Shown here: piece after piece, positions 6,007 through 60,225 of the stretch
Layout of the letters: each line of letters opens with the position of its first letter
Numbering within the stretch: position 1 is the first letter of the stretch
Assembly (NCBI GenBank): GCA_001767435.1
Contig: MEKT01000037.1
Coordinates: 25,840 to 89,839, forward strand
DNA: 64,000 bases
Direction of reading: 5' to 3'
DNA from: Acidobacteria bacterium RIFCSPLOWO2_02_FULL_65_29
GTDB lineage: Bacteria > Acidobacteriota > Vicinamibacteria > Vicinamibacterales > CAVVIG01
Notes under the pieces: generated by a model
Databases searched by the model: none
Seen by the model: the letters and a program-made list of their open reading frames with translations, nothing else
Told to the model about the DNA's origin: nothing
Program-made: the position numbers and the translations under genes

Positions 6007-6017
6007 GGAAGCGTTCC

Positions 6018-6971: not shown

Positions 6972-6992
6972 AGGTCGTCCTCTTGGAAACGC

Positions 6993-7496: not shown

Positions 7497-8083
7497 TGCC
7501 TGATCCATGCCACGGCGTTGGCGGGCGACCACCAGAGCCGCACAAGCGGCGTTGCGGTCAACGTCGTGGCGAAGACGCCGATACCGTTCGTGAGATAGAT
7601 CGCGTTGTCCCCAACGGGCGCACCGACCCCGTCCACGGGAATACCGCGCGAGTTGAACATGATGCACGCGCTGTTGCCGATGGCGACGCCGCCGTCATCG
7701 GTACAGGCCGCGGACTGCGCGATGGCCACCTGGGTGTCCGGTGGAGGAGTATCGAGGGTGCCGAATCCGAACTGCACGCCTTGCGAGAGCTGCGTGGGAC
7801 CGCCCTCGGTCACCCAGGTGTTGGCGGTCCTGTCCCAGAACTGCGTGAAGTAGGTGTTGTCGTCGAGCGTCACGAACAGGCGCGCACGGCTGAACTTCGA
7901 GGCCGCTCGCATTTTGACCACGCCGACCATCTGGGCGATCGCCCTCCCGTCGTTTCGCAGGCGCAAATCCTCGCTCGTCCGGAAAACACTCGGGAGAGCG
8001 AAAATCGCGATGATGCCCATCACGGCGACCACCGTCAACAGCTCAATCATCGAGAACCCGCCCTCGCCCTTCCTCTGGCGCAT
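7493..8083 (-). CDS. FimT/GspH-like minor pilin
   Basis: MRQRKGEGG|FSMIELLTVVAVMGIIAI prepilin motif. An alternative upstream ATG lies at 8140. Confidence 0.7.
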   Translation of the reverse strand: MRQRKGEGGFSMIELLTVVAVMGIIAIFALPSVFRTSEDLRLRNDGRAIAQMVGVVKMRAASKFSRARLFVTLDDNTYFTQFWDRTANTWVTEGGPTQLSQGVQFGFGTLDTPPPDTQVAIAQSAACTDDGGVAIGNSACIMFNSRGIPVDGVGAPVGDNAIYLTNGIGVFATTLTATPLVRLWWSPANAVAWIRQ

Positions 8084-8264
8084 ACGCCTCGGAACTGCAA
8101 AGCATGGTCCGATGCCAAAAAGTGACTTAACAAATTTCATTTGAATACTTTACAACCAAGATTCAGGACATGGTGGCGCCGAATCTATTGTGCCGTTTTA
8201 GAACACTGAATTACGATTCTGTCCTGACTCCCGAGTCCCTAGTCCCGAGTCCCTAGCCCCCGAT

Positions 8265-14908: not shown

Positions 14909-17161
14909 ATGAGCAGCCTCTGTCGTGATTCCACTCCCGACCTGGTGGGCCGCGCGGGCCAGGCCCGCGGACCGCTTTCGACGCACGCCGTCCACAAGGA
15001 CGTACACATTCTCGATCTCCTGGCGGTCATCTATCGGTACCGGCGCATGGCCTTCTCGGTCTTCATCTTGACCACGATCGCCCTGATGATCCAGGGCTAC
15101 TCGGGCGTCCGGTTGTACCAGGCTAAAGCGCAGCTCCTGATCGAAGACGAGCGCTCGACGGCGATGCCGGGCATTGCGACCGGCCAGTACTACGAGGATC
15201 CTGTCCCCTACTACAACACGCAGCACCGTATCTTGCGAAGCCGCGAGCTCGCGCGGCGGGTCGTGAGGCGCCTGCAGCTCGGAACACATCCCGAGTTCAA
15301 TGGCACCGCGACGCCTCCCGTCACACTCGTGACGGCGGTACGAGCGGCGGCCGCGCGGGCGCTGCGGGGCCTGACCTTGTTGTCCGCGGCTGTCGAAGAG
15401 GAAGCGCCCACACCCGACGAGACCCCCGCTGAAGCGGCGCTCGTGGGCAACTTCCTCTCCCGGGTCGTCGTCACACCGGTCCCTGACAGCAAGCTGGTGG
15501 ACGTGTTCTTCACGGCGGCGGACCCCGCGGTGACGGCTCTGGCGGCCACCACGCTCGCCGAGGAGTACGTCGCGCAGAATCTCGAACTGAAGCAGCAGAG
15601 CACGCAGAACATGCTCGAGTGGCTCGAGAACGAAGTGGCGGCCCAGCAGACGAAGGTCGAGCAGAGCGAGCGCGATCTCGCGGAATATCGCGAGATGGAA
15701 AACGCGATGTCGCTCGACGACAAGAACAACATCGTCGTGTCGCGTCTCAACGCACTCAACGAAGCGAGCATTAGGGCTCGCACGGTTCGGATCGAGAAGG
15801 AATCGGTCAACAACCAACTCAAGGCCATCCGCGACACAAGGTCGGTAGACGCCATTCCGGTCATCACACAGAATTTGCAGATTCAGGCGCTCAGGAATCA
15901 ACTCGGTGATTTACAGCGCCAGAAAGCCAATCTCACCGAGCGCTATGGCGACAAGCACCCCGAGATGGTGAAAGTCAACGCCCAGCTTGCCGACGGGCAG
16001 CGTCAGCTCGACGTGGGGACCGCGAAGGCGCTCGAGTCGGTCAGGAACGAATACGAACGTGCGCTGATCGAGGAGCGGACACTCGCCGCCCATCTGGAGG
16101 AAGCCAAGCGAGACGCGCAGGATCTGAGCCGTAAGAGCGTCGGCTACAACGTGTTGGAACGCGAGGCGAAAAGCCATCGCACGGTCTACGAGTCGCTCCT
16201 GCAGCGCACCAACGAGTTGCGCGTGTCGAGCAACAGCCGGGCGAACAACGTTCGGCTTGTCGAGCGGGGTGAAGTGCCGGGAAGTCCTGTGACCCCGTCG
16301 GGCCGGCGCACCTGGGGCCTGTCTGTCGTGGTGGGGTTGTTCGCCGCCATCGCCGTCGCCTATGGCCTCGATTACATGAACGACACCGTCAAGACGCCCG
16401 AGGACGTCACGCGGTTTCTGAAAATGACCTTCCTCGGTCTCGTGCCGTCGGTCCGCGGCGACAAGCATCCGCTGATGGCCTCGTGGGACACACCGAAGCA
16501 CTTCGGCGAAGCGTTCCGAAACCTGCGCACAGCGATCATCGCGCTGTATCCGGGCGACGGGCCGAAGACCATGGCCGTGACGAGCGCGCAGCCGCTCGAA
16601 GGCAAGACGACGACCGCGTGCAATATCGCGTTGGCGTTGGCCTACGGCGGAATGCGAGTCCTCTTGATCGACGCCGATCTACGCCGGCCCGGTCTACACC
16701 TGTCGCTCCGTCTGACAAACGAACGGGGGCTGTCGCACGTCCTGGGCGGGCGGGCTCGTCTACGCGACGTCATCCAGCGCACTGTCGATCTGAACCTATT
16801 TGCGATCACCGCCGGTCCCACACCGTCCGAGCCGTCGGAGCTGCTGGCTTCGGAGCGGATGAAGATGCTCCTGAGCAGTCTGGCGCAGGGGCCATTCGAC
16901 TGGATCATCATCGATACCCCTCCGGTGCTCGGGGTGAGTGACGCCGTCGTCCTTACACCCTTGGTTACCGGCGTCACGTTCGTGGTCGGTGCCGAAATGA
17001 CGCGACGGCAGGTGGCTGAGCACGCAATCGAAACCATTCTGTCGAGCCGGCCAAAGCTGCTTGGCGTCGTGCTCAACAAGGTCGACTTCGCTCGGAACAA
17101 GTACTACTATTCACGCTACTACGGCCGGCAGTACGAGAACCACTACGCTGAAGCGGTCTAG
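14909..17161 (+). CDS. Polysaccharide co-polymerase / bacterial tyrosine autokinase (Wzc/GumC-type)
   Basis: Wzz-like N-terminal TM segment, a long coiled-coil periplasmic region and a second TM segment. Walker A SAQPLEGKTTTACNIA; C-terminal Tyr cluster NKYYYSRYYGRQYENHY. Confidence 0.85.
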   Translation: MSSLCRDSTPDLVGRAGQARGPLSTHAVHKDVHILDLLAVIYRYRRMAFSVFILTTIALMIQGYSGVRLYQAKAQLLIEDERSTAMPGIATGQYYEDPVPYYNTQHRILRSRELARRVVRRLQLGTHPEFNGTATPPVTLVTAVRAAAARALRGLTLLSAAVEEEAPTPDETPAEAALVGNFLSRVVVTPVPDSKLVDVFFTAADPAVTALAATTLAEEYVAQNLELKQQSTQNMLEWLENEVAAQQTKVEQSERDLAEYREMENAMSLDDKNNIVVSRLNALNEASIRARTVRIEKESVNNQLKAIRDTRSVDAIPVITQNLQIQALRNQLGDLQRQKANLTERYGDKHPEMVKVNAQLADGQRQLDVGTAKALESVRNEYERALIEERTLAAHLEEAKRDAQDLSRKSVGYNVLEREAKSHRTVYESLLQRTNELRVSSNSRANNVRLVERGEVPGSPVTPSGRRTWGLSVVVGLFAAIAVAYGLDYMNDTVKTPEDVTRFLKMTFLGLVPSVRGDKHPLMASWDTPKHFGEAFRNLRTAIIALYPGDGPKTMAVTSAQPLEGKTTTACNIALALAYGGMRVLLIDADLRRPGLHLSLRLTNERGLSHVLGGRARLRDVIQRTVDLNLFAITAGPTPSEPSELLASERMKMLLSSLAQGPFDWIIIDTPPVLGVSDAVVLTPLVTGVTFVVGAEMTRRQVAEHAIETILSSRPKLLGVVLNKVDFARNKYYYSRYYGRQYENHYAEAV

Positions 17162-17190
17162 AAGATCGCCTCCCACCGCGTATCGGGGCC

Positions 17191-17354
17191 TAGCAGCCCG
17201 TGGTGAAAGTCTGGCTGCATTCGACGGGCGATGCATCCTCGCCGGCTGCGTTGCTCCTCGCTCACATACTCCCGGTATGCTCGGTCGTCGCGCCTTGCCG
17301 GCGAGGCGCCTCGCCCGTCTCGGTGCGACGCCAGACTTTCGCCACAGGCTGCTA
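17191..17354. mobile_element. MITE-like palindromic element, copy 1 (160 bp flanked by TA)
   Basis: Terminal inverted repeats gcagcccgtggtgaaagtctggc / gccagactttcgccacaggctgc, with internal arms also complementary. About 150 of 160 nt are identical to the copy at 22917-23076. Confidence 0.6.
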
Positions 17355-17404
17355 ATGGCAGACGTCTCGCCCGCCCGTGTCATGGCTCGCGACAGGAACG
17401 CTCG

Positions 17405-17433
17405 TTGACACGGCGCGCCGCCGGCTCTATATT
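17405..17433 (+). promoter_or_regulatory. Near-consensus sigma70-type promoter for the radical SAM operon
   Basis: TTGACA (17405-17410), exactly 17-nt spacer, TATATT (17428-17433). It lies about 110 nt upstream of the first operon ATG. Confidence 0.5.
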
Positions 17434-17544
17434 CAGCGCCCTGGTGATTTCTCGACACCCGTGGTCATCGTTGTGTTTCGGCGACACGGACGAGTGACAA
17501 GACGCGCGCAGTGACGCGGGACGAGATCCCGAGGTGGGCACAGG

Positions 17545-18522
17545 ATGAGCGTCCGATCCGTTCCGGGCGACGCGCTGGACACGATGCGCCGCACTGCGAT
17601 GACTCGCTCGCTGTTGGGACGGTTTCCATGGGCCGGCCAGTGGGAGCTGACATGCCGCTGCAACCTCAGATGTGTGATGTGCTACACGGACTGCTTCAAT
17701 ACGTCCGCACACGTCAGGCAGGAGCTCGCCACCGAGGACATCGTTCGTATTCTCGATGAACTGCAGGAAGCCGGATGCGTCGAGCTGACGTTCACCGGAG
17801 GCGAGCCGTTGTCGCGGCCCGATTTTCTGACAATTTACGGAGCCGCACACGAGCGCGGGTTTGTCCTCACCGTCTTCACCAACGGTACGTTGATTACGCC
17901 GGCCGTTGCCGACTGCTGGGCGCTCGCCCGGCCCAGGAGCGTCGAGATTTCTGTCCACGGTGTGTCGGCCCGGGTCTTCGACGGTGTGACTCGAGTTCCT
18001 GGATCGCTCGAGCGCTGCTTGGCGGGCATCGAGCTGGTGATGAGGCGGCGGATTCCAGTCGTTTTGAAAACGGTGGGGCTGATTTCGAATTGGCACGAGA
18101 TTCTGGCGATCAAACAGTTCGTCGACTCGCTCGGCGGCGCGACGTGGCGGTTCGGCCAGTACTTGCGTGACGACCTCGCTGGCACGAGTGCTCCGTTTCA
18201 GTTTCAGCTTCCCGAGGCGAGACTGCGGACGCTCGAGCAGCAGGACCGCGAGCTCTGGGAAGCCAAGTGCGGCGAGATCGCCTGGTCCGAGTCGATCGCG
18301 CACAAGACCTGCGGTGGCGGGCAGCTGACCTTTCACATCGACGCCTACGGCCAGCTTCAGCTGTGTTCGAACAATAGGCGAGGTGGCTACGACCTGCGCG
18401 CCGGCTCATTCCGTGCCGGCTTCGACGAGGTCCTGCCAACCTTGCCCTGTCAAGGCCGAACCAGGACTCATCCGGAGACCATGCCCCTGCACGTCACGCG
18501 GCCGCGGCGGACGGCGTCGTGA
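17545..18522 (+). CDS. Radical SAM protein A (C-terminal auxiliary-cluster region reduced or disrupted)
   Basis: CX3CX2C in ELTCRCNLRCVMCY and a GGEPL SAM-binding motif. Paralog of the ORFs at 20201 and 22218. Only CGGG...C...C remains in the C-terminal region. Confidence 0.85.
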   Translation: MSVRSVPGDALDTMRRTAMTRSLLGRFPWAGQWELTCRCNLRCVMCYTDCFNTSAHVRQELATEDIVRILDELQEAGCVELTFTGGEPLSRPDFLTIYGAAHERGFVLTVFTNGTLITPAVADCWALARPRSVEISVHGVSARVFDGVTRVPGSLERCLAGIELVMRRRIPVVLKTVGLISNWHEILAIKQFVDSLGGATWRFGQYLRDDLAGTSAPFQFQLPEARLRTLEQQDRELWEAKCGEIAWSESIAHKTCGGGQLTFHIDAYGQLQLCSNNRRGGYDLRAGSFRAGFDEVLPTLPCQGRTRTHPETMPLHVTRPRRTAS

Positions 18523-18537
18523 ACTCGAGGATTCTGA

Positions 18538-20220
18538 GTGCCAACATCGGACGAGTCTCAAAGCAGGATAGCTCGCGTAGGTGTTGAACCCGTGCAGGAT
18601 ATCCGAACGGTCGAAAACCACGATGCGGCGTATGACATCTGGAAGGCCGCTGGCGCTCGAAACCGAGTTCTGGTTCATGTCGACGGGCACGTCGACTTCG
18701 AGTGGATGAACGATCACGTTGCCGATGAGCTTCTGGCCGCGCGCAGCTCAGTGGAGATCCAGCGGCTGCTTGCCGAGACGAGCGCCTGGCATTTCGACGA
18801 ACGGCCGTTGCGCGAACGGGTCACCCCCGCGAATTTCATCTATCCGGCGATAAAGGAGGGTCTCGTTCGCGAGTTCATCTGGATCATGCCCGATGCCTTC
18901 TGGGCAAGCCCCGCAGCACGTCGCGTGATTCGCGATGGTTTGGAGCAGACACTGCGCCGGGGCTCGCCAGAGGCCGGCCCCCTACGCGTGTCCAACGGCG
19001 GCATCCGTTTTCGTCTGCTGGGGTGTCCTGTGACCGCGTGTACGCTCGCCACTTTGCCTCGCATCACCGAGCCGGTGCTGCTCGATATCGACGTCGATTA
19101 TCTCCTCACCACGAATCCGGCGGGGCCGGCCCCGTACTTCCAGCGCGAGCCGGCCGAGCCGTGGCTGTGGCCCAGCGCGTTCTTCCGGCGCCTCAGGTCG
19201 ACGCGTCTGAAGACGGACCTGCTGACCATCGCGTACTCCGTGGACGACGGTTTCACGCTGCTTCGCTACAAGTACTTTGGCGATCTGCTGCGACGCGCGC
19301 TCGGCGAGGCGTCCGAACGCGTGAGCGACGCCCCGGTTTCCGGGAGCGCTGCCGAGGCGTTCGATCACGTGAGCCGAAGCCTCTCCGCTCACGACATGCT
19401 CTCGACCGGTCGCTGGTGGCGAGAAATGGTGCGTCGAGATCCTTCCTATCGCTCGGTCTACGCGATCCCTGGATGGCGGGAAGAATGCGCTGGACGCTGG
19501 GACGCCGCGCTCGACATCTACCAGCGAATGATTGAGATCGATCCGGAATGGCACGTGCCGCATCTGGGAAGGGGTCGCGCGCTCTGGCAATTTGGCCGAT
19601 ATGCGGAGGCGGAAACGGCTTTCGAAGCGGCAGCCTCGCGGAGCTCCCGAGCGACGTCAGCCACGTACTGGCTGGGTCTTTGCCGATTTCGCCGCCAAGA
19701 TCTCGAAGGGGCCTCACGCGCCTGGACCGACGCGGTTCGAGCCGACCCACGCGATGGCTCGAGCCTGCATGGTTTGGCCTGCGTGGAGGCTCAACAAGGG
19801 CAGGCGAGAGCTGGCGGCGCCCGGATTGCTCGAGGAGAACGCCGGCAGTGGAACCGGAGACGAAAGGGACTATCTCACATGACGGACCTCCACGATCCGC
19901 TCGGCACGCGCTATGAGCATGAGCCAAGCATCGTGACCCGCCGCGTCGCCGGCGAGGTCATCCTCGTGCCGACGCGCCAGATGAGCGGAGACGCTGCCCT
20001 TTTCACACTGGACGAAGTGGCAGCTTTTCTCTGGGAACGGTTGGACGGGCAGAGGACCGGCAAGGACCTCGTCGCGGCTCTGGAGTCGTCATATGCCGCT
20101 GAACCGGAACAGGCCGCCGCTGATGTGCGCACCTTTCTGGAGCAGCTCGAATCAATTGACGCAGTGCGGCGCGTGTCGGAGTCCCGCCGGGCGACGAATC
20201 ATGGCCCGGCCTCTCGCTGA
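18538..20220 (+). CDS. Multidomain ORF: UPF0489/arginase-deacetylase-like N-domain, TPR repeats and a C-terminal PqqD-type (RRE) domain
   Basis: Uninterrupted 560-codon frame. N-terminus VENHDAAYDIW...LVHVDGHVDF resembles the UPF0489 signature. TPR-like helices span aa about 290-420. The last 113 aa (from ATG 19879, preceded by aaaggga) are PqqD-like (VAGEVILVP...LFTLDEVAAFLWERLDGQRTGKDLVAAL). Confidence 0.7.
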   Translation: MPTSDESQSRIARVGVEPVQDIRTVENHDAAYDIWKAAGARNRVLVHVDGHVDFEWMNDHVADELLAARSSVEIQRLLAETSAWHFDERPLRERVTPANFIYPAIKEGLVREFIWIMPDAFWASPAARRVIRDGLEQTLRRGSPEAGPLRVSNGGIRFRLLGCPVTACTLATLPRITEPVLLDIDVDYLLTTNPAGPAPYFQREPAEPWLWPSAFFRRLRSTRLKTDLLTIAYSVDDGFTLLRYKYFGDLLRRALGEASERVSDAPVSGSAAEAFDHVSRSLSAHDMLSTGRWWREMVRRDPSYRSVYAIPGWREECAGRWDAALDIYQRMIEIDPEWHVPHLGRGRALWQFGRYAEAETAFEAAASRSSRATSATYWLGLCRFRRQDLEGASRAWTDAVRADPRDGSSLHGLACVEAQQGQARAGGARIARGERRQWNRRRKGLSHMTDLHDPLGTRYEHEPSIVTRRVAGEVILVPTRQMSGDAALFTLDEVAAFLWERLDGQRTGKDLVAALESSYAAEPEQAAADVRTFLEQLESIDAVRRVSESRRATNHGPASR

Positions 20221-21298
20221 AGAGCAGTACGGTCAGTTCAGCGCCCGCGTCTGCAGTCGCACCATCGCCGACGCGCAACCGACTCGTGTCCAGTTCGAGC
20301 TGACCTACAGGTGCAATATCCATTGCGTGCACTGCTACACCGACCCCTTCAACACCCTGGACGCTGTCGGGCGTGAGCTCGATCTGCACGAGATCTCGAG
20401 GATCTTTGACGAGCTGGCTGATGCGGGTGTGCTGTGGATGACGATGACAGGCGGTGAAGCCCTCGTGCATCCTCAGTTCCGGCGGATCTATCAGGAAGCC
20501 AAACGCCGGGGATTCATCATCAGCCTCTATTCGAACGGGACGACGGTTTCCGAGAGCCTCGCGGACTTCCTTGCCGCGGACCCGCCGTTCACGATTGACG
20601 TGAGCTGCCACGCGGCCACGAGCGGAACCTTCGACAGGATCACCCAAGTCTCCGGTTCCTTCAATCTGTTTCAGCAGGGCGTTGGTCGGCTGATGGCGAG
20701 AGCGTTGCCGCTCACGATCAAGACGAAGGCGATGACGACAAACCGGCACGAGCTCTCGCGGATCAAGACGCTGGTGGAAGACCTCGGGCTCGACTTCCAT
20801 GTCTTCACGACGATTCATCCACGTCTGAACGGGGACCTGACGTCCACCCACTACCGGCTGACACCGCGAGAGATCATCGATCTCGAGGTGGGAGAGACAG
20901 CCGATGGCTGTGAAGGTGTGTGCGGCTCGCGCGATCGGGCCGGTGCCAACACCCTGACAGAGCCTCCCTCCGATGATCGGTTGTTTCGCTGCGGGTGCGG
21001 GACCAACACCTGCACGATCAATCCCTACGGGGTTCTGCGAGCCTGCACCCATACCACCTGGCCTTCGATCGACCTGAACACCACGCCATTTGCGCAGGCG
21101 TTCGCGCGCCTTGTCAACCAAGTGCGGAATGCCCGATACACAGGCGCGTCGCCGTGCGCGGCGTGTACGGCCCATGTCTTCTGCCACAAGAACCCGGCAA
21201 TGGCCGTGCACGAAGCGGGTGCGATGGAGGCGCCGGTGACCCATTACTGTGAAGTGGCCTTTGGCAAAGCCGCGCGGCTTGGGCAGACGTGCAAATGA
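20201..21298 (+). CDS. Radical SAM/SPASM protein B
   Basis: ELTYRCNIHCVHCY cluster motif. Cys-rich tail FRCGCGTNTC...C...CAACTAHVFC...C. The start at 20201 (MARPLAEE) overlaps the previous ORF by 20 nt. Confidence 0.85.
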   Translation: MARPLAEEQYGQFSARVCSRTIADAQPTRVQFELTYRCNIHCVHCYTDPFNTLDAVGRELDLHEISRIFDELADAGVLWMTMTGGEALVHPQFRRIYQEAKRRGFIISLYSNGTTVSESLADFLAADPPFTIDVSCHAATSGTFDRITQVSGSFNLFQQGVGRLMARALPLTIKTKAMTTNRHELSRIKTLVEDLGLDFHVFTTIHPRLNGDLTSTHYRLTPREIIDLEVGETADGCEGVCGSRDRAGANTLTEPPSDDRLFRCGCGTNTCTINPYGVLRACTHTTWPSIDLNTTPFAQAFARLVNQVRNARYTGASPCAACTAHVFCHKNPAMAVHEAGAMEAPVTHYCEVAFGKAARLGQTCK

Positions 21299-22221
21299 CG
21301 GTTCGATTCCAGTTCGGACCGGCGACGATCGATCTTGTCGCTGACCGCTGGCCCGAGGATGTGACGGCCGGGCACTACGGGCCGTTCGTGTCCAACCCGG
21401 AGGGCCCCGCCGACCTCACCATCCACGTCCATCGCGATCGAGCGCCCAGTTGCGGCCGGGTTTCGCCCGCCGCGCAACTACCGACCAACTGGGCCCTGTA
21501 CCGGTGCCGATCGGGCTATCGCCTGGAAATCCTGGAGCAAGTCACATTCGCACCACGGCAGATAGTCTTGCTGGATCGATCATTGAGCCGCGCTGACGTC
21601 TACGCGGCGTCGGGAGCTGGGCTCCCAGGGTATCCGCCGGGGAGCTGGTGTCTGGCTCTGGTGATGAATCCGTTCGTGCAGTGGTGGCTCACGGCCTTCC
21701 TCGCGCTTCGAGCGCGGGGCGTGTTGCTGCATGCTTCCGCGGCGGCCTTCAATGGGGCGGGCCTTGCGTTTGCCGGACCTTCCGGCGCGGGCAAGACGAC
21801 GACCGTTCGGAGGTGTCGAGATCGCGCCGGGGCGGTCGTGCTCAACGACGAGCGGATCATCGTGTGGCGAACCGCGGAGGGGGTCAAGGTGGCTGGCACG
21901 CCCTGGCACGGGGAACTCCCCGAGGTTGCCGCCTTGGTCGTACCTCTGGTCGGGCTCTTCATGCTGACCAAGAACGCAACGAACCGCTATCTCCCGTGGC
22001 CGCCGCCACGTATGGTGGCGGGCATCATGTCGGAAGCGTTTCTCCCTATCTGGAGCGTCGAGGCCATGGCGGGCCTGCTCGAAGCGGCGGAGCACATCGT
22101 ACGCGCGGTTCCGAGCGGCGAGCTGCAGCTCGCGAACGACCGCGACGTCGCGGACTACCTGCGGCGCTTCGTGGATGTCGGGCCCAGCACGCCGTGGGCG
22201 GTCGCCGTGGGGTCGCCATGA
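21295..22221 (+). CDS. HPr-kinase-like P-loop protein (HprK-related, ScmC-like)
   Basis: LLHASAAAFNGAGLAFAGPSGAGKTTT matches the HprK C-terminal-domain P-loop context. ATGA overlap with the upstream stop; GTG alternative at 21289. Confidence 0.75.
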   Translation: MTVRFQFGPATIDLVADRWPEDVTAGHYGPFVSNPEGPADLTIHVHRDRAPSCGRVSPAAQLPTNWALYRCRSGYRLEILEQVTFAPRQIVLLDRSLSRADVYAASGAGLPGYPPGSWCLALVMNPFVQWWLTAFLALRARGVLLHASAAAFNGAGLAFAGPSGAGKTTTVRRCRDRAGAVVLNDERIIVWRTAEGVKVAGTPWHGELPEVAALVVPLVGLFMLTKNATNRYLPWPPPRMVAGIMSEAFLPIWSVEAMAGLLEAAEHIVRAVPSGELQLANDRDVADYLRRFVDVGPSTPWAVAVGSP

Positions 22222-23468
22222 ACGAGATATCGTTCGAGCGCCTGGTCTTTGGCGTGGACGACGAAGCCCGGGCCGCCCCGCATCTCGTGCAGGCGATGGT
22301 GGAGCTCACCTATGGCTGCAACCTGCGGTGTGTTCACTGCTACAACCCGACGCACGACGCGCAAGACGAGCTGCGGACCGAGGCTGTCCTGCGGATCCTA
22401 GACGAGCTGGCCCACGAGGGATGCCTCCGCGTCGGCTTTACCGGCGGCGAGCTCTTCGTTCGTCGCGATACCTTCGACATCCTGCGTCACGCAAAACGGC
22501 TCGGGATGATCCTCACGATTCTCACCAATGCGACGATGATCACATCGAAGATCGCGGATCGTCTTGCCGCGCTCGATCCCCACCAGGTCGACGTCTCGGT
22601 CTACGGCGCAAGCGCCGAGACGTATGAAACCGTCACGAGAGTCCCCGGCTCCTTCCTCCGATTTTTGAGCGGTCTGGATCGGCTCGTCGAGCGGCATGTT
22701 CGCGTGTTGCTCAAGCTCGTCCTGCTCACCGTGAACGTCCACGAGCGCCGCCAGATGCAAGAGCTTGCGATGAGCCGAAATCTTCGTTACCAGATGGCGA
22801 CCGACGTGCACCCGAGGGTTGACGGATCGATCGAGCCGCTGGCCTATCGTCTCTCGCCAGCGCAAGCGTTCGAAGTCTGGCGCGAGTCTGCCGAGCCGAT
22901 CCCGTCAGCGAGCCTAACAGCCCGTGGTGAAAGTCTGGCTGCATTCGACGGGCGATGCATCCCCGCCGGCGGCGTTGCTCCTCCCTCAAATACTCCCGGT
23001 ATTCTCGGTCGTCGCGCCTTGCCGGCGGGGCGCCTCGCCCGTCTCGGTGCGACGCCAGACGTTCACCACGGGCTGCTAACGTCTGGCGGTTCCCAGATGC
23101 GGGGGGCTTCCCGTGCGAAAGCAGAGGAACCCTCCTGTGGATTCGATGGGCGGGTGTTTCACTGTCGTTGCGGAAAATCGAATGTGGCCGTGACGCCCCA
23201 CGGCAGGCTCAATCTGTGCCTCTCGGTTTATCACCCACGATACGACCTCACACGCGGCAGCCTGAAAGACGGTTGGAAGCAGCTCGTGGATCTGGTTGCG
23301 TCGGCCAGACCAGGACCGGCCTACGAGTGCAATCGGTGCTCCCTCACCGAGCATTGCTCGCGCGGCGTGGGCGATAGCTGGCTCGCGACCGGCCAATTCG
23401 ACAATCCATGTATGCCGCACTACCGGGAGCTGGCCGAGCGCAAGGCAAGTTTCCTCAGGGAGCGGTAA
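22218..23468 (+). CDS. Radical SAM/SPASM protein C carrying an in-frame MITE-derived 54-codon insert
   Basis: ELTYGCNLRCVHCY cluster motif. SPASM-like tail HCRCG...C...ECNRCSLTEHC...C. ATGA overlap with the upstream stop. The insert lies at 22915-23078, in the linker between the core and the SPASM region. Confidence 0.85.
   Translation: MNEISFERLVFGVDDEARAAPHLVQAMVELTYGCNLRCVHCYNPTHDAQDELRTEAVLRILDELAHEGCLRVGFTGGELFVRRDTFDILRHAKRLGMILTILTNATMITSKIADRLAALDPHQVDVSVYGASAETYETVTRVPGSFLRFLSGLDRLVERHVRVLLKLVLLTVNVHERRQMQELAMSRNLRYQMATDVHPRVDGSIEPLAYRLSPAQAFEVWRESAEPIPSASLTARGESLAAFDGRCIPAGGVAPPSNTPGILGRRALPAGRLARLGATPDVHHGLLTSGGSQMRGASRAKAEEPSCGFDGRVFHCRCGKSNVAVTPHGRLNLCLSVYHPRYDLTRGSLKDGWKQLVDLVASARPGPAYECNRCSLTEHCSRGVGDSWLATGQFDNPCMPHYRELAERKASFLRER
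22915..23078. mobile_element. MITE-like palindromic element, copy 2, inside a coding region
   Basis: Same 160-bp element as 17193-17352, flanked by TA. Element plus one TA is 162 bp (54 codons), with no stop in the host frame. Confidence 0.6.
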
Positions 23469-23482
23469 CCGGAGGTCTTCTC

Positions 23483-23701
23483 ATGGAGCACGAACGCGCG
23501 CGGAAAAAGTACCACCCACCGACGATCACTCGGGTCGTCTTGCGGCCCGAGCAGGCCATTCTGAGCCAGTGCAGCACGATGGGGATGTCCGCTCGAGACC
23601 TCGGCAGCCCGAGCGTGATGACGTGTGCGTTCGGACCCGACAATTGCCGCGCGTGGGCCGGCACCGGCAGGTTTGTCGACAGCGGGTATCGCCCCTCGTA
23701 A
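23483..23701 (+). CDS. Candidate RiPP precursor peptide (72 aa)
   Basis: GGAGG at 23471-23475, 7 nt before the ATG. Peptide: MEHERARKKYHPPTITRVVLRPEQAILSQCSTMGMSARDLGSPSVMTCAFGPDNCRAWAGTGRFVDSGYRPS. It has a YxxPxI leader-like motif, 3 Cys and a C-terminal Ser. Confidence 0.55.
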   Translation: MEHERARKKYHPPTITRVVLRPEQAILSQCSTMGMSARDLGSPSVMTCAFGPDNCRAWAGTGRFVDSGYRPS

Positions 23702-23703
23702 GG

Positions 23704-24180
23704 ATGAGAGGGCTCCTGACGCGGCCGCGGCATCCAAGCGGGATTCCTGAACGGACGGGACGAATCTCCGACTATCTCGAGGTGGCGGATCTTCTCGTTT
23801 GCCAGCGAAGATTGCGCTTCCGAGTCTCGTCGGACAGCATGGTGCCCAGTCTGCGACCGGGGGATCTCGTGCGGCTCCGCCCTGTGTTCGACCGGCTCGC
23901 CGCGGGCGATCTCGTCGCGATGCGCCTGGGGGACCGCATCATCTGTCATCGCGTCACGCGCTGCTACCCTGACGAAGACGGCCGACAGTGGGTGGTGACG
24001 AAAGGCGATCGGAGCGCTGCCGAGGATTTCCCCAGTTCCGCAGCCCTGATCGTCGGTCGGGTCACCGAGGTGATTCGACCGCCGGTCTGGAATCGCCTCA
24101 TGTGGCGCACGCGCGGCTTCCTGTGCGCGCTGTTGGCGCGCCGCCGCAAAGCGTCTGAACGTCAGAGGTCACCGTCTTGA
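23704..24180 (+). CDS. S26B-type (SipW/Sec11-like) serine peptidase, candidate leader peptidase
   Basis: Motif series SDSMVPSLRPGD ... GDLVAM ... CHRV ... TKGDRSAAED parallels the archaeal/SipW-type signal peptidase boxes. It starts 2 nt after the precursor stop. Confidence 0.65.
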   Translation: MRGLLTRPRHPSGIPERTGRISDYLEVADLLVCQRRLRFRVSSDSMVPSLRPGDLVRLRPVFDRLAAGDLVAMRLGDRIICHRVTRCYPDEDGRQWVVTKGDRSAAEDFPSSAALIVGRVTEVIRPPVWNRLMWRTRGFLCALLARRRKASERQRSPS

Positions 24181-25052
24181 AATCGCCGAGCGAGCCTCGC
24201 CCAGCTCAGGCCGCTGCCGAACCCACCGAATGGGCGCGACCCTGGCGCCTTGAAGCCACAAGGCGACTGCTACTTGCCGCGCGGGGGTTGGAGTTTTTCA
24301 GCCTCGCGATCCCGCGTCCGGACGATTTGATCGGATCGGCGCACCGGTTCTACGCCAAGCCGGAAGTGGTCACCGGCATGGCGGAGAGTGCCGATGCCGA
24401 CCTGTATCCGCACGAGAAGGCCGCTCTGGAACGATTCGCTCCTCACCCGACCGATGCGCTCGTGCTGGGTTGCGGCGCGGGGCGGGAAGCGATCGCGTTG
24501 GTGAAGCGGGGCTGGAGCGTCGTGGGCCTGGACGCCGGGCCCGCGCTGATTGAGGCCGCGAAGCTGAACGCCGCTCGAGCCGACGTCCGCATCGACTTCC
24601 GCTGCCACGACATCACGCGGCCATTTCATGTCGATGTCGATCGCGTGTTCGACCTCGTCTGCATCTTCGGCGTCGTTTACAGCCTGATCCCGAGTCGTCC
24701 GCTGCGGGTGGCCACTCTCCGCACCTGTCGCACGCATCTGGCGCCTGATGGCGTGTGCGTCTTGGACTTTGCGGCCCGCGAGAACCCGACGAGCCCGCGC
24801 GAGCTTTGGGCCCACCGCTGGCGCCAGCGACTTGCTTGGGCGACCCGCGGAAATCGAGACTGTCAGATCGGTGACCACTGGTTCGCTGGCGTCCTCTGCA
24901 TGCACGCATTTGCCCATCCCGACGAAGTGTCGAAAGAGGCCGAGGAGGCCGGTTTCCATACTGAGATGTTGCGGGACCCTGGCTACCCGCCGGTCGCGGT
25001 GTTGACACACCGCCCTCACCCTCACGAAATGTCGTCTCGAGACGCCGACTGA
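24177..25052 (+). CDS. Class I SAM-dependent methyltransferase
   Basis: Motif I VLGCGAGREA and post-I VVGLD. TTGA overlap with the upstream stop. An internal ATG (MAESAD) is an alternative start. Confidence 0.8.
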   Translation: MKSPSEPRPAQAAAEPTEWARPWRLEATRRLLLAARGLEFFSLAIPRPDDLIGSAHRFYAKPEVVTGMAESADADLYPHEKAALERFAPHPTDALVLGCGAGREAIALVKRGWSVVGLDAGPALIEAAKLNAARADVRIDFRCHDITRPFHVDVDRVFDLVCIFGVVYSLIPSRPLRVATLRTCRTHLAPDGVCVLDFAARENPTSPRELWAHRWRQRLAWATRGNRDCQIGDHWFAGVLCMHAFAHPDEVSKEAEEAGFHTEMLRDPGYPPVAVLTHRPHPHEMSSRDAD

Positions 25053-25092
25053 CCGGCTCCCACACGTCGCGTCACCGGTCACGGTTCCGGCT

Positions 25093-26244
25093 TCAGAAGA
25101 TGTCGAGAGGCGAGCGACGGCGAAGCCACTTCCCCACGCCGCGGACGATTCGACGGGCGTACAGCAGTGGGAGAAGCACGGCGATTGAGGTGTTGTTGGA
25201 ACGCAGGACGTATTCCGCGGAAGGAAAAAGATGCTGGTAAACGAGTCGAAGTCTGTCTGGCCACCTGGGAAGGGCCCGCAGGTCGGAGATGAACACATCC
25301 GCCTTGCGCCGGCCATTCTTCAAGAATGCCGCCGATCGCTCGACCTCGCCGAATGGTGTCTTCGCGATGAGATCGCTGAGCACAAACGAAGGGACCGGCG
25401 CGCCGCATGAGCGCTGGGCAGCCCGCAGCCCGCTCGCGCAGATCGCCCGGACGCGCCTCTGGCCGGCCAACTCCATGAAACGGTTCCACTGCTGTTCGGA
25501 CATGCCGGCGGCGAGTAGATGGATGTCGTACAGCCAGATCAGCCGGCGCGTGTTGTTGTGGTGGGCAACCCGATGAACGCATGCGAGCAACAGGGCGTGG
25601 ACCGCCGACAGGCCCCGCGCGCCCGCGCCGAGATAGGCGACCTGCACGGCCTCACAGGCGAGGTCGTCAAAGCTCGCCAGCTGTGCAAACGTTTGCGGCT
25701 CGGCGAGGCGCCAATGAATGTCGAACTCATACTTGAGGCCAAGGCGAGCGTCGCGCTGATAGAGAGTCTGATAGGTGACGAGTTCGCCGCTGACGCGTAC
25801 GCCAGGGCAGTAACCGAGATCGTTCATGAGACGACCGGCCGGCTGGCGATCGGATTCTCTGATCAGCAGATCGACGTCCGAGCAGGGCCTCAGGCAGGGA
25901 CTGGGATAATGAGTGTACGCCAGGTGCGTACCCTTGAGCAGCAGCGGATGGACTCCGCCCTCGAACAGCGCGCGTAGCACCCGCCTCAGTTCGACAAAGC
26001 GAAGCGACTCGGAGAACACCTGTGCGCGCGTCTCGGCCGCGAGGATCGTCCGCACGCGGTCGGGCCATTCTTGGCCCTCGCCGCGGTGGTAAAGCAGATG
26101 AGCCAGCAATGACTGGATGCCGTGCGCCCTGGCAGCCTGGATGAAACGCTCCTCCATGTCGCCGTTCCAGCTGGCGGGCCACCGTACAGGGTTGCCGCGC
26201 AGCGCTGCGGCGAGCAGAGCCTCGATCACGATGGGCCTTGTCAA
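25093..26244 (-). CDS. Uncharacterised nucleotidyltransferase family protein (PF14907-like)
   Basis: 383-aa ORF with LLLKGTHLAYTHYPSPCLRPCSDVDLLI and a later DIHW motif, typical of that family (from memory). Convergent with the operon. Confidence 0.65.
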   Translation of the reverse strand: MTRPIVIEALLAAALRGNPVRWPASWNGDMEERFIQAARAHGIQSLLAHLLYHRGEGQEWPDRVRTILAAETRAQVFSESLRFVELRRVLRALFEGGVHPLLLKGTHLAYTHYPSPCLRPCSDVDLLIRESDRQPAGRLMNDLGYCPGVRVSGELVTYQTLYQRDARLGLKYEFDIHWRLAEPQTFAQLASFDDLACEAVQVAYLGAGARGLSAVHALLLACVHRVAHHNNTRRLIWLYDIHLLAAGMSEQQWNRFMELAGQRRVRAICASGLRAAQRSCGAPVPSFVLSDLIAKTPFGEVERSAAFLKNGRRKADVFISDLRALPRWPDRLRLVYQHLFPSAEYVLRSNNTSIAVLLPLLYARRIVRGVGKWLRRRSPLDIF

Positions 26245-26429
26245 CTCAGCGTATTCAAGATGCGCGTCGAATCACTCAGCGTAACCGGCGTCAAGAGCAT
26301 ACGATTGTTTGGGCCGATGAGCACTCATGCTTGATCTACACCCGCGGGCTACTGGGTTTTTCCCGCGGGCTGCTAAGATAGGATTCGACCAAGATCGCAG
26401 TGATCGTCTATTCAGGGAGGATGACCATC

Positions 26430-26879
26430 ATGATGCTGCGTCAGATCGTGCCGCTTGCCGGTGTGCTCGCCCTTTCCGTGGCCGTGTTCGCCCAGGGCCC
26501 GCGGCGCGACGGCAGGTGGGAAGTGACCACACAAATGGAAATGGCCGGGATGCCGGGCGGACGCGGCATGCCCGCGATGACCGCCACTCAGTGCATCACC
26601 AAGGAGCAGGCCGACGACCCGCAGAGGATGACGCCGCAGCCGCCGCAGCGCGGGGGCGGCCAGAACGACTGCAAGGTGTCGGACTACAAGATCGTCGGCA
26701 ACAAGGCCACGTGGACGATGAAGTGCACCACGCCGCAGGAGATCGACGGCACGGGCGACGTGACGTACGGCAACGACACGTACGAAGGCACCATGACGAT
26801 GAACATGGCGCGCGGCGGCCAGGCCATGCAAATGACGATGAAGATGAACGGCAAGCGGCTTGGAGACTGTACGCAGTAG
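26430..26879 (+). CDS. DUF3617-like secreted/lipoprotein-type protein
   Basis: GGGAGG at 26415-26420. Signal peptide MMLRQIVPLAGVLALSVAVFAQG. Conserved Cys spacing and a C-terminal KRLGDC. Confidence 0.7.
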   Translation: MMLRQIVPLAGVLALSVAVFAQGPRRDGRWEVTTQMEMAGMPGGRGMPAMTATQCITKEQADDPQRMTPQPPQRGGGQNDCKVSDYKIVGNKATWTMKCTTPQEIDGTGDVTYGNDTYEGTMTMNMARGGQAMQMTMKMNGKRLGDCTQ

Positions 26880-29445: not shown

Positions 29446-29919
29446 ATGGAGGCACGAATGGGCAAAGACGTGATGGTCATGGATCGGAGCGCCGGCGATT
29501 CGAGCATCAACGTGGGCCGTGTCATTGCCGGCGGACTTTTGGCCGGACTGGTGATCAACATCAGCGAGGCCATCCTCAACCTGTTCGTCGTCGCGGCCGA
29601 CATGGAGGCCGTACTCAAGGAGCGCAACCTCCCGCCGCTCGGCATGACGCCGATCGTCGGGTTCATCGTGTTCGGGTTCCTGCTCGGCATCGGCACCATC
29701 TGGCTGTACGCGGCGATGCGCCCGCGGCTGGGGCCAGGCGTCAAGACGGCGGTGATCACCGCTGTCGTCGTGTGGTTGCTGGCCTATGTCTATGCGGGTC
29801 TGGGCATGAGCTTGATGGGGCTGTTTCCCATGGGATTGATGACCTTTACGCTCGTGTGGGGCCTGGTCGAGGTCGTCGCCGGCGCGGTCGCCGGCGCATG
29901 GGTGTATCGCGAATCGTAG
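29446..29919 (+). CDS. Integral membrane protein, unknown function
   Basis: Four hydrophobic segments after MEARMGKDVMVMDRS. Start chosen after the intergenic hairpin; nearby ATGs are alternatives. Confidence 0.6.
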   Translation: MEARMGKDVMVMDRSAGDSSINVGRVIAGGLLAGLVINISEAILNLFVVAADMEAVLKERNLPPLGMTPIVGFIVFGFLLGIGTIWLYAAMRPRLGPGVKTAVITAVVVWLLAYVYAGLGMSLMGLFPMGLMTFTLVWGLVEVVAGAVAGAWVYRES

Positions 29920-30089
29920 CGTCTCACCGGGCCATATCCGACGCGATCGTGGACCGATGGATGACAGCCGAGTGGTCGACGATGGACTTTCTACGCCTTG
30001 GTCTCGTGACGTATCACGATACGGACGTTCGAGCGAGCACGTTCGGCGCGACGTTCAGTTGGATTCGTTCGGGCAGTGAGCGTTCGGGA

Positions 30090-33000
30090 ATGCCTCTGCT
30101 GGCGATGGCTTCGGTGACACTGCTCTTTGGGGCATTACTGTGTGCCGACCCGGCGTCGGCACAAGTCGTGGCCAGCGGCAAGTCGCTGACGGTGACCACC
30201 GCGAACGCCGTCGCGACGTTCAACGGACCCGACCTGGTCGGGTTCGTGAACTCCCTCACCAACGAAACCTACTTGAAGAACCCGAGCGCCGGCGAACTGG
30301 CGCAGGTCGACACCATCGCGTCCACAGGACAGGCCTTGCAGTCGTCGAACTGGACGATCGGATCGGAACCCGGGACGGGCCTTCCGCTCGCCACCATCAC
30401 CAGCAGCGATTCGGTCCGCACATTCACGTTGACCGTCAAGATCGATCCGGCCAGCCAGGAAATCGTCCTCCGCTGTGGCGCGAGCGTGTCGACGGCGGGA
30501 CTGCGCGGTGCCTCCTGGAGCATCGCGGGCCTGGATTTTACATCTGGCCGGCTGATCATCCCGGCGAACGGCGGTCGGATATTCGACCGGGCCCATCCGG
30601 ACATCGGCACGTCCATGGAATATCCGAACAACTGGCACGCGCAGATGGCGGTGTACGAATCCGCGCTCGGCAGCTTTGTGATGTATTCCACCGACGCGCA
30701 GATGTTTTTCAAGCGGCTGCGCCTGTCGAGCCGCGGCGATTCGACCGTGGACGTCGCCGTGGCCACCGAAGCGGTGGCGCCGTTCCCCTCGGCCACGACC
30801 GTTCCGGCCGTGGAGTGGCGGCTCAAAGCATTCGCCGGCGACTGGCGCGTATCGGCGCGGCTGTATCGAGACTGGCTGCTGGCCAATCGTCCGCCCGTGT
30901 CGAACGCCGCGCATCCGTGGGTCTCGGATATCCGTGCCGTCGTGGGCGTTTACCGGACGGATGCGAGCCTTCTCACGCCGCTGGCCGCCCTGCTCGTTCC
31001 GTCGCAGACGCTGCTGTACTTGGTCGATTGGCGACAGGATTCCTACGACATCAATTACCCCGACTACACGCCGCGCGCCGGCGTTGCGAGCTTCGTCTCG
31101 AGCGCTCACGCCCTGGGCTTCAAGGTCATGCTTCACACGGACCTGATAGGCGTGTCGCCTGGGAACGCCGATTACGCGGCCATGCAGCCGTATCAACTAC
31201 GGACACCGGAAACACTCGACTTGATGGGCTGGCAATGGGACCGTCTCTCGGATCCACAGCGCTTTGCCTTCATCGACCCGGCGGCGCCTTCATTCAGAGC
31301 TTTGTGGATTTCCAGGATGGGCGCGGCCATCGCCGCGGTCGCTCCGGACGCGTTGCACCTGGATATTTCCGGGTACACGTTCAACGACGGGAACGGACCC
31401 ATTGCGGGCCTCACATATCCGCAGGGCACGGATCAATTCCGCAAGGACATCATCGCGGCGTTTCCCAGTGTCGCTCTCGGGGGCGAAGGCGAAAACGACA
31501 TCTCGTATCGCTACGAGTCGTTCGCCCAGATCGATTGGAACGCTCCAAACAACCCAGGGCATCCGATTGCGACGTTCCTTTTCAGTCCGCAGGTCCGGTA
31601 CTACGGGTACCTCGGTCAGCACTTGGCACAGGACCCCGGCTTCAAACGTGATCTCCTCGAGTACGAGCGCCGCGCCATTCTGCCGCAGTTGCCAATCGGT
31701 TCGGCAAGCGATCTGGACATGAGCAATGCGGACAACGCGCGCCTCATTGGCCTGATCCAAAGCTGGCAGACTCACGCGTTTCAACCGGCGTGGACGGCCG
31801 ACTGGACGGGCGCGTTGGTGCGCTACGAGGGTCTGGCGGGGTCGACGGCGACGCTCACCGACTCCGGAGGACTGACGACGCTGACGGCGGCGGGCTCGAC
31901 GCTGTTTCAGCTCGCGCACGACGTGAACCAGGTGACGAGCGGATCGTTCCTCAACGCCTGGCCGGCCTTCGACAACACGACGCTGTACGGGTTGAACCCG
32001 ACGAGGCTGTACTTTCTCGATCCTGTGCCGCGGCCCGGGACGACCCATGCGACGTCGCTGCCGGCCGGCGTTCAGATCGGTTCGGGCACGGTCACCAGCA
32101 CGTCGTTCGCTCACATCGAGGTCGCGCCGGCCTCAGTGCCGCTATTCGATTTCATCGGAGGCCTGATTCAGGCGCACAGCGGTGTCCGGTTTCAGGGTGT
32201 CGACACGCCGCTCGGCAACGGCGCGAATGCATCGCCGGGTACGATCACCGCGGGAGGCGTGACACGCTCTGGGCTCCTGCTCCAGCCCCCCTTCCAGAGT
32301 CAGGTCGGCGGGGAGTCCTTTGTCGAGTATTCCGTGCCGGTGCCGACCAACGCCACGATGCAGTTCTCCGTTGGCGTCGACGACGGCGGTACGTGCACGG
32401 ATGGCGTGACGTTCCGCATCACGGCCAACGGGTCTGAGCTCTGGCACCAGCACGTGAACCGCGGCGGGTGGCAGGACATCCTCCTGAACGTCGCGGCCTG
32501 GAGCGGAACGACGGTCGCGCTGCGTCTGATCAGCAACCCCGGGCCGGCCGGCAACCCGCACTGCGACCGGTCGTTGTGGAGCCAACTCACCCTCGCCGTT
32601 CCACCGACCGAGTCCATCGCCGTGCCGTTGGCTCTCGCAACCGGTTCCGTCATCGCTGGCTTCGACGGAGATGGGACGCTGTCATCTGCTGTGCCGCTCT
32701 CAGCCACGGTCAGCAACGTACGGGTGCCGGGGGCCTTTACCGTCTTTACTCAAGTGGGCGCCGCGGTGTCCGCCGGAACGAACCTCGCCAGCCTGCCGTT
32801 CGAGGTTTGGGGATCGTCACATGGGGAGAGGGCCATACCGGGCGGCATTTTTGGATCAGGCTCGATCGGAACCGCCACCTCGGGTGGCGTGTCGAAATCG
32901 CAAACGATCTGGGCCCATCCCCCGAACGGCGGAACGACGATTCTGTCCTGGGTGCTTCAGTTGCCGGTCGGCCCGCTGCGCCTTGGCTTGAGCGTCGGTT

Positions 33001-60212: not shown

Positions 60213-60225
60213 GGAGGAGGTCGTC

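Follow-up and report, generated by a model that had tools for sequence, protein, structure and literature searches.

Can a kinase that resembles the tailoring kinases of lasso peptides operate in a peptide pathway that is built on other chemistry? This question is raised by a 64,000-nucleotide stretch of DNA from Acidobacteria bacterium RIFCSPLOWO2_02_FULL_65_29 (contig MEKT01000037.1, positions 25,840 to 89,839), the whole of which is hereafter termed the window. In this window, a gene for a P-loop kinase-like protein lies between two genes for radical S-adenosylmethionine (rSAM) enzymes. The original prediction proposed that this HPr kinase (HprK)-like open reading frame (ORF), a PF14907-like nucleotidyltransferase, a PqqD domain and a small precursor peptide ending in Ser constitute a lasso-type tailoring kit which has been recombined with rSAM chemistry.

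The cluster represents a real, uncharacterised family of peptides that are made on ribosomes and modified after translation (RiPPs), which combines rSAM enzymes with a lasso-like C-terminal tailoring pair. The kinase is probably an ATP-dependent P-loop enzyme of the ScmC family which is integral to a conserved rSAM RiPP operon as one of its tailoring enzymes, acting in the pathway proposed below. Because Ser is the last residue in 97 of 99 related precursors, the most likely role of the kinase would be phosphorylation of the C-terminal Ser of the precursor, like that carried out by its distant relatives in lasso clusters.

A precursor family with a near-invariant terminal Ser

The precursor that was predicted to end in ...GYRPS corresponds to a 72-aa ORF (MEHERARKKYHPPTITRVVLRPEQAILSQCS...CAFGPDNCRAW...DSGYRPS) with a GGAGG Shine-Dalgarno sequence located 7 nt ahead of its ATG (Table 1). 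Its product is 100% identical to a protein recorded for Acidobacteria bacterium RIFCSPLOWO2_02_FULL_65_29. A profile built from nine precursors retrieved 99 homologues of 59-84 aa, in which the leader is conserved (PYxPPxITRVVLRxEQAILSxC) and the cores are otherwise divergent. Exactly three Cys residues are present in 93 of the 99 precursors, and Lys or Arg follows the final Cys residue in 90 of 98. Despite the divergent cores, the precursors of homologous clusters retain the terminal Ser on which the original prediction depended; the two exceptions among the 99 are an apparently truncated peptide and one ending in Cys. As a background for this frequency, Ser occupies 12.9% of the preceding 20 tail positions. 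The 99 precursors are phylogenetically related, not independent, and terminal Ser is found in 38 of 40 tail-diverse precursors (<40% identity over the last 25 residues).

The near-invariant terminal Ser is the strongest new evidence in the analysis. The terminal-Ser rule is strong within this precursor family, and it is proposed for this family, not for the superfamily as a whole. Of two more distant loci that combine ScmC, PqqD and rSAM genes, L013 has a precursor ending in ...IGS and L008 has one ending in ...TSA. No precursor was identified in the Terriglobales locus L009. A Myxococcales locus (L008, 6046-11734) includes genes for PqqD, one rSAM enzyme, a 55-aa peptide with a similar leader (YEPPQIEVIVL), an ScmC-family protein and a 946-aa Peptidase_C25 protein.

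The kinase gene, its motifs and its fold

On the + strand, the kinase ORF extends from ATG 21295 to its TGA stop codon (22219-22221). A GTG at 21289 is the longer start chosen by the ORF caller; the starts of homologues align with ATG 21295 instead. The G+C content at third codon positions (GC3) of this frame is 0.78-0.79, and the G+C content across the window is 63-70%. The ORF is a real gene: it has 28 full-length homologues (E 1e-54 to 1e-204), and an AlphaFold2 model built on its relatives has a mean pLDDT of 91.5. The stop codon of the upstream rSAM gene overlaps the kinase ATG (caaATGAcg), and the kinase stop shares bases in the same way with the ATG that opens the next rSAM gene downstream (gccATGAac); therefore, the kinase and both flanking rSAM genes are translationally coupled.

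The P-loop motif quoted in the original prediction, LLHASAAAFNGAGLAFAGPSGAGKTTT, is present at residues 146-172. The catalytic His (H148), the Walker-A loop (GPSGAGKT, residues 163-170) and the acidic Asp-Glu pair (D187-E188) are all intact. H148, the P-loop from G163 to T170 and D187 are invariant across the 28 close homologues, and E188 and R189 are at least 90% conserved; H148, G163, G168, K169 and D187 are also invariant across 117 distant homologues. In Foldseek searches, the kinase model matches ATP-dependent phosphoenolpyruvate carboxykinase (PEPCK; E 3e-7, probability 1.0) and HPr kinase/phosphorylase (HprK/P; E 7e-5 to 1e-3, probability 1.0, target TM score about 0.5), and the modelled fold is the known PEPCK/HprK kinase fold. 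A phmmer comparison with HprK/P in the PDB gives E 0.72, in an alignment where the His, P-loop and acidic pair of the kinase fall opposite their counterparts in HprK/P of L. casei, whose acidic pair is Asp-Asp. A PDB profile search with the kinase alignment returned generic P-loop matches only.

The HprK likeness of the original prediction thus holds at the level of fold and motifs only. The kinase has its fold, Walker-A loop and catalytic His and Asp in common with HprK/P and ATP-dependent PEPCK, but differs from them in its N-terminal domain, its genomic context and its presumed substrate, and it belongs to neither sequence family.

Assignment to the ScmC family (PF27840) is taken from precomputed annotation, not from re-scoring: PF27840 is carried by P0001, a protein 99% identical to the kinase, and by 45 of 49 homologues. 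The NCBIfam model of ScmC (TIGR04249) matches residues 141-205 only (20.5 bits vs a cutoff of 125; E 2.5e-4), and HprK_rel_B gives a local match at residues ~140-206 (27.1 bits vs a cutoff of 200). HprK_rel_A, which with HprK_rel_B makes up the pair TIGR04352/TIGR04355 (cutoff 200 bits), has no match to the kinase. An exhaustive profile search with the kinase retrieved 18,976 representatives (50% identity) at E<=1e-3, of which 846 reach E<=1e-30; a tight subfamily comprises about 23 of the representatives. HprK_rel_B is matched at E<=1e-10 by only 5 of the 117 next-tier relatives, and this tier is essentially outside NCBIfam coverage. The genomic context is that of an ScmC cassette, with a PqqD domain and three rSAM genes encoded in the same operon, each scoring below the ScmD, ScmE or ScmF cutoffs.

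Relation to lasso-peptide tailoring

In lasso clusters, the HprK homologues PadeK and PsmK phosphorylate the C-terminal Ser of lasso precursors; these kinases act specifically on that residue, depend little on the remaining peptide and use the precursor as substrate (PMC6993621; PMC8498205). PsmK is inactivated by the D158A/D159A exchanges at the site that is predicted to bind metal, and PsmN, a nucleotidyltransferase of the uncharacterised PF14907 type, adds one or two hexoses onto the phosphate, for which D134 and D136 are essential (PMC6993621). The Ser phosphorylation and nucleotidyltransferase decoration that the original prediction described agree with this literature.

The PF14907-like gene that was predicted to lie convergently to the cluster is borne out, with a PF14907 score of 141.7 bits against a gathering cutoff of 31.2. 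The Pol-beta-type motif KG...RPxSDxDLL of its product (K104, G105, R119, D123, D125) is invariant in the eight loci compared. PF14907 adjoins the cluster in seven loci (the window, L001, L002, L006, L010, L011 and L015), and it is paired with an HprK-like kinase also in L009 and in the lasso locus of P0048. P0048, a distant match of the kinase, is encoded in a genuine lasso cluster together with Asn_synthase, Transglut_core3 and PF14907. An hhalign comparison of the kinase with lasso kinases of the P0048 group gives a probability of 97.9% and E 6e-13 over 138 columns, covering residues 146-285. By these comparisons the kinase is not a lasso kinase, and shares with such kinases the catalytic domain only.

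The window cluster and the lasso systems (PadeK; PsmK/PsmN) have in common an HprK-like catalytic domain, a precursor with C-terminal Ser, a PF14907 partner and a PqqD-type recognition element. They differ in how the peptide scaffold is made: lasso systems use an Asn-synthetase-like cyclase and a transglutaminase-like protease, whereas the scaffold in the window would be produced by three rSAM enzymes, with an S24/S26-type peptidase as the candidate leader peptidase. In line with the original prediction, neither Asn_synthase (lasso cyclase) nor Transglut_core3 (protease) has a Pfam match in the ORFs scanned across the 64-kb window, and no lasso cyclase or B1/B2 protease is found in any related locus compared. 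Lasso kinases differ also in their N-terminal domain, in their clade and in their acidic pair, which is Asp-Asp rather than the Asp-Glu of the window kinase.

In a neighbour-joining tree, which is a crude distance tree of context-labelled metagenomic proteins drawn without PadeK, PsmK and canonical ScmC, the window kinase clade is monophyletic and adjoins proteins of the ScmC family whose genes accompany rSAM and PqqD genes, and the lasso-type kinases occupy another branch. The idea that a tailoring module was recombined with rSAM chemistry must be adjusted accordingly: the pairing itself is found, but neither a placement with the lasso kinases nor a recent swap is. An old and widespread partnership is a better description than a recent swap, because only the catalytic domain is homologous and the kinase groups with the rSAM/PqqD-associated ScmC proteins.

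Proposed pathway and alternatives

Gene content and order, translational coupling, the fold, the intact motifs, the conservation of the cluster and the near-invariant Ser are observed; from these we infer a pathway, including each of its chemical steps, their order and the nature of the rSAM cross-links. The PqqD domain would bind the conserved leader (PYxPPxITRVVLRxEQAILS), and the three rSAM enzymes would modify the core, most simply by forming one cross-link at each of the three invariant Cys residues. The kinase would phosphorylate the side-chain hydroxyl of the C-terminal Ser (Ser72), and the PF14907 enzyme would add one or more hexoses, or a nucleotide, to the Ser phosphate in a PsmN-like manner. 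The S24/S26-type peptidase would cut off the leader and the methyltransferase would add a methyl group; these two enzymes might act in sequence, because they are fused in the related locus L004. The arginase-like domain may turn Arg to ornithine, a conversion that is possible because the precursors hold an invariant leader Arg as well as Lys or Arg past the last Cys. The product would then be exported.

Several observations weigh against phosphorylation of the terminal Ser by a lasso-like pair. No core cluster protein reaches a curated NCBIfam cutoff, and a search of the accessible literature found no paper on the ScmC family. The kinase is only a distant relative of lasso kinases: its N-terminal 145 residues do not align with theirs, and the two fall in different clades. 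In the kinase subfamily, Glu (E188) takes the place of the second Asp in the 'DD' pair of HprK. PF14907 is absent from the flanks of L004 and L014 (in L014, none occurs within 10 kb), and the precursors in these loci still end in Ser. In the distant ScmC/rSAM locus L008, the precursor ends in ...TSA.

Alternative explanations differ in what they take the terminal Ser or the kinase to be for. The Ser could be the substrate of an rSAM enzyme, for example in an MftC-like oxidative decarboxylation or cross-link, with the kinase directed at internal Ser/Thr residues or at a different molecule. In mycofactocin, MftC modifies the residue at the C-terminus of the peptide; rSAM enzyme 2 covers nearly the full length of the mycofactocin maturase model (positions 11-316 of 339), and the precursor cores are rich in Ser/Thr. 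However, the score of rSAM enzyme 2, 90.8 bits, is far under the MftC cutoff of 265, and the three invariant Cys residues match the three rSAM enzymes with no need for the terminal Ser. In addition, the only characterised RiPP-associated relatives of the kinase fold act on C-terminal Ser (PMC6993621; PMC8498205), and this explanation is conceivable but unlikely. Rather improbable, too, is a transient phosphorylation, in which Ser/Thr residues are eliminated to dehydro-residues that react with Cys thiols, or a C-terminal dehydroalanine is hydrolysed, which leaves an amide at the C-terminus. Phosphorylation followed by elimination is established in class II-IV lanthipeptides, and the three invariant Cys residues and many Ser/Thr residues of the cores would suit such chemistry. 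Yet Pfam and NCBIfam scans of the cluster yielded neither a phospho-lyase nor a LanC-like cyclase domain, a way to thioethers is already available in the three rSAM enzymes, and the co-conserved PF14907 enzyme suggests that the phosphate persists and is built upon.

The ScmC-like protein might have a target other than a peptide, or none: it could bind ATP as a scaffold or chaperone of the rSAM complex, or act as a sugar or lipid kinase within the adjacent Wza/Wzc polysaccharide pathway. Foldseek ranks PEPCK, a small-molecule kinase, over HprK/P, the cluster has Wza and/or Wzc-like neighbours in five loci, and NCBIfam names ScmC merely as a conserved hypothetical cassette protein (SCM_chp_ScmC). 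We give such roles little credence: none of the catalytic residues His, Lys and Asp varies, the kinase gene is always located between rSAM genes in the RiPP operon, even in loci without nearby exopolysaccharide genes, and the constraint on the terminal Ser would be left unexplained. A genuine HprK/P of carbon catabolite control, placed beside a RiPP cluster by chance, would account for the shared fold and P-loop context, but is exceedingly improbable and was rejected on sequence-family membership. The kinase matches neither PF07475 (Hpr_kinase_C) nor TIGR00679 at E<=0.01, PF02603 is likewise unmatched, and the phmmer comparison with HprK/P is at E 0.7. Neither the Hpr_kinase_N nor the phosphotransferase-system (PTS) HPr families of Pfam have a match in the ORFs scanned across the window, and in all 11 loci the kinase keeps strict synteny with RiPP genes. 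Phosphorylation of the precursor C-terminal Ser by an integral kinase of the operon is the most probable of these readings.

Comparison with catalogued rSAM systems

The pairing of HprK-like, PqqD and rSAM proteins is already catalogued as the SynChlorMet (SCM) cassette and in Pfam ScmC, with no function in the model names. Like the window cluster, the SCM cassette comprises an HprK-like protein (ScmC), a PqqD homologue (ScmD) and several PqqE-like rSAM/SPASM enzymes (ScmE and ScmF; TIGR04248-04251; PF27840), and the weak best matches of the PqqD and rSAM proteins in the window include ScmD, ScmE and ScmF. The window proteins are, however, far below the cutoffs (ScmC, 20.5 vs 125 bits; ScmD, 34 vs 100; ScmE, 75-87 vs 400). 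The window cluster also has three rSAM genes rather than two, and adds an arginase-like/tetratricopeptide repeat (TPR) domain together with genes for an S24 peptidase, a methyltransferase and a PF14907 protein. We know of no function or precursor assigned to the SCM cassette, whereas a clear precursor family is found for the window cluster.

Sactipeptide and ranthipeptide systems also resemble the cluster in having rSAM maturases that depend on PqqD or a RiPP recognition element, a conserved leader and invariant Cys residues, and rSAM enzyme 3 is closest to the sactipeptide maturase StsB. They differ in that the window has three separate maturases for three Cys residues, the kinase/nucleotidyltransferase pair and the invariant terminal Ser; no curated cutoff is reached, and PF13186 has no match at E<=0.01.

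A literature search returned no relevant paper on SynChlorMet, ScmC, PF14907 or HPr kinase combined with rSAM or RiPP. The larger cluster type, the precursor family with an invariant terminal Ser and the explicit link to the lasso kinase/PF14907 pair appear new. If the proposed reaction is correct, the kinase and PF14907 pair, so far described for a few lasso peptides of Firmicutes, would amount to a portable module for C-terminal tailoring which also serves rSAM RiPPs in uncultured members of Acidobacteria, Elusimicrobiota, Bdellovibrionota and other groups. The large unannotated ScmC/HprK-like family, with about 19,000 representatives, would gain its first functional assignment, and a new RiPP family would be defined by its conserved leader, three Cys residues, three rSAM enzymes and invariant terminal Ser. 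With an operon of about 9 kb and a peptide of 72 aa, these ideas are cheap to test.

Organization of the cluster

Table 1. Features of the RiPP cluster and its upstream neighbour (window coordinates)
Feature	Coordinates	Strand	Basis
Wzc-like polysaccharide co-polymerase/BY tyrosine autokinase	14909-17161	+	directly upstream of cluster
Promoter candidate, sigma-70-like	17405-17433	+	TTGACA-17-TATATT, 11/12 matches
rSAM enzyme 1 (CRCNLRCVMC)	17545-18522	+	PF04055, E 2.8e-22
UPF0489/FlmR_OhkR_N (peptide-arginase-like), TPR and PqqD fusion	18538-20220	+	Pfam/NCBIfam
rSAM enzyme 2 (YRCNIHCVHC)	20198-21298 (start approximate)	+	PF04055, E 7.8e-14
Kinase, 308 aa	21295-22221	+	ScmC-family (PF27840) P-loop kinase, PEPCK/HprK fold
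rSAM enzyme 3 (YGCNLRCVHC; C-terminal CxxCx5C)	22218-23468	+	PF04055, E 2.1e-23
Precursor, 72 aa	23483-23701	+	GGAGG ribosome-binding site; homologue family
S24/S26-type serine peptidase (SSDSMVPSL ... KGD)	23704-24180	+	PF00717, E 3.6e-6
Class I S-adenosylmethionine-dependent methyltransferase	24177-25052 (start uncertain)	+	Methyltransf_25, E 5e-14
PF14907 (NTP_transf_5) nucleotidyltransferase-fold enzyme	25093-26244	-	E 4e-41; convergent with operon

The rSAM chemistry of the original prediction is represented by three genes, and the products of all three contain the CxxxCxxC rSAM core. For rSAM enzyme 1, which is kept in all related loci, the best NCBIfam matches are AhbD, NirJ and ScmE, all far under their cutoffs. 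The C-terminus of rSAM enzyme 2 contains Cys-rich, SPASM-like motifs. The best NCBIfam match of rSAM enzyme 3 is StsB (102 bits vs a cutoff of 625). PF13186 (SPASM) is not matched, as stated above; CxxCx5C is present in the C-termini of both enzymes 2 and 3.

The predicted PqqD domain is found in the fusion ORF between the first two rSAM genes (E 2.8e-16, residues 474-539, about 19957-20154). The same ORF matches TPR families and UPF0489 (E 4e-4) in Pfam. Its NCBIfam matches, both below the cutoffs, are to the FlmR/OhkR model of peptide arginases (E 7.9e-7) and to ScmD (E 1.9e-8). Fusions of arginase-like, TPR and PqqD domains also occur in L004, L005 (2423-4126) and L010, and L011 (3223-4743) carries an arginase-like start too. 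The HD, HxDGHxD and DIDxDY motifs of the arginase-like domain (window 18538-19300) are invariant in eight loci.

Downstream of the precursor gene, the S24/S26-type peptidase, which is the candidate leader peptidase, matches signal peptidase I (TIGR02228) at E 3.2e-8, under the cutoff. Its gene has the same position in L001, L005 and L006; in L004 (10156-11346), the peptidase and methyltransferase are fused in one 396-aa protein. The methyltransferase is kept in L001, L004, L010 and L012, and its weak best NCBIfam match is a daptide-type RiPP methyltransferase (44 bits vs a cutoff of 175). A daptide-like pathway, which rested on this weak match, was rejected, since the required oxidoreductase and aminotransferase are absent.

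The promoter candidate is located in a 384-bp gap ahead of the first cluster gene. It is the sole such site within 17000-26500, where one is expected by chance, and only its position is suggestive. GC3 of the cluster genes (17545-26244) is about 0.71-0.79, compared with 0.84-0.88 in most flanking genes, which hints at horizontal acquisition of the cluster.

Related loci

The same gene set, in nearly the same order, is present in 10 other loci (L001, L002, L004, L005, L006, L010, L011, L012, L014 and L015), and a tblastn matrix confirms the gene matches across loci. L001 is located on a 442-kb contig in ENA, L002 and L005 are from Elusimicrobiota and L006 is from Bacteriovoracaceae; overall, the 10 loci come from metagenome-assembled genomes labelled Elusimicrobiota or Bacteriovoracaceae/Bdellovibrionota, or from unlabelled metagenomes. 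A profile scan of genome contigs yielded three loci only, so that named genomes contribute little taxonomic breadth. A pair of ABC-2 transporter genes is present in most related loci, and none is found in the window.

Some of these loci contain additional genes. In L004 (4774-5504), a nucleotidyltransferase/HEPN pair, which is toxin-antitoxin-like, is inserted between the genes for rSAM enzyme 1 and the TPR-PqqD protein. In L014 (11191-17810), genes for two B12-binding rSAM enzymes and GDSL-lipase-like proteins are added past the precursor gene.

Neighbouring genes

The gene directly upstream of the window cluster encodes a Wzc-like protein, which matches eps_transp_fam (E 1.2e-78), eps_fam (164 bits vs a cutoff of 108) and the Pfam families Wzz, GNVR and AAA_31. 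This gene may be functionally linked to the cluster, but is not part of its core. Genes for Wza (Poly_export), Wzc-like proteins (GNVR, CbiA, BY-kinase) and a glycosyltransferase are direct neighbours of the cluster in five of the 11 loci: the window (14909-17161), L001 (13140-15401), L002 (16548 to the end), L010 (11495-14031) and L011 (11270-15281). In L010 and L011, the polysaccharide export genes are located immediately past PF14907. By count alone, such a recurrence seems higher than chance would give. It is a speculative idea, to which we attach a low probability, that the phospho-Ser might anchor a glycan or polysaccharide by way of a phosphodiester that the PF14907 enzyme would form, the glycan being built and exported by the flanking Wza, Wzc and glycosyltransferase gene products; the product would then be an rSAM-cross-linked peptide capped with, or anchored to, exopolysaccharide.

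Elsewhere in the window, an ORF of ~1,866 aa with signs of repeated segments (29772-35372) is located just downstream of the cluster flank. A further region (57841-61521) encodes a PLD-like protein, a phosphate-selective porin O/P and a CotH kinase-family protein, and is adjoined by a gene for a STAS/DUF4956 protein. On the - strand, 4507-8149 contains a type IV pilin-like run of genes with PilX_N, DUF7305 and N-terminal methylation motifs.

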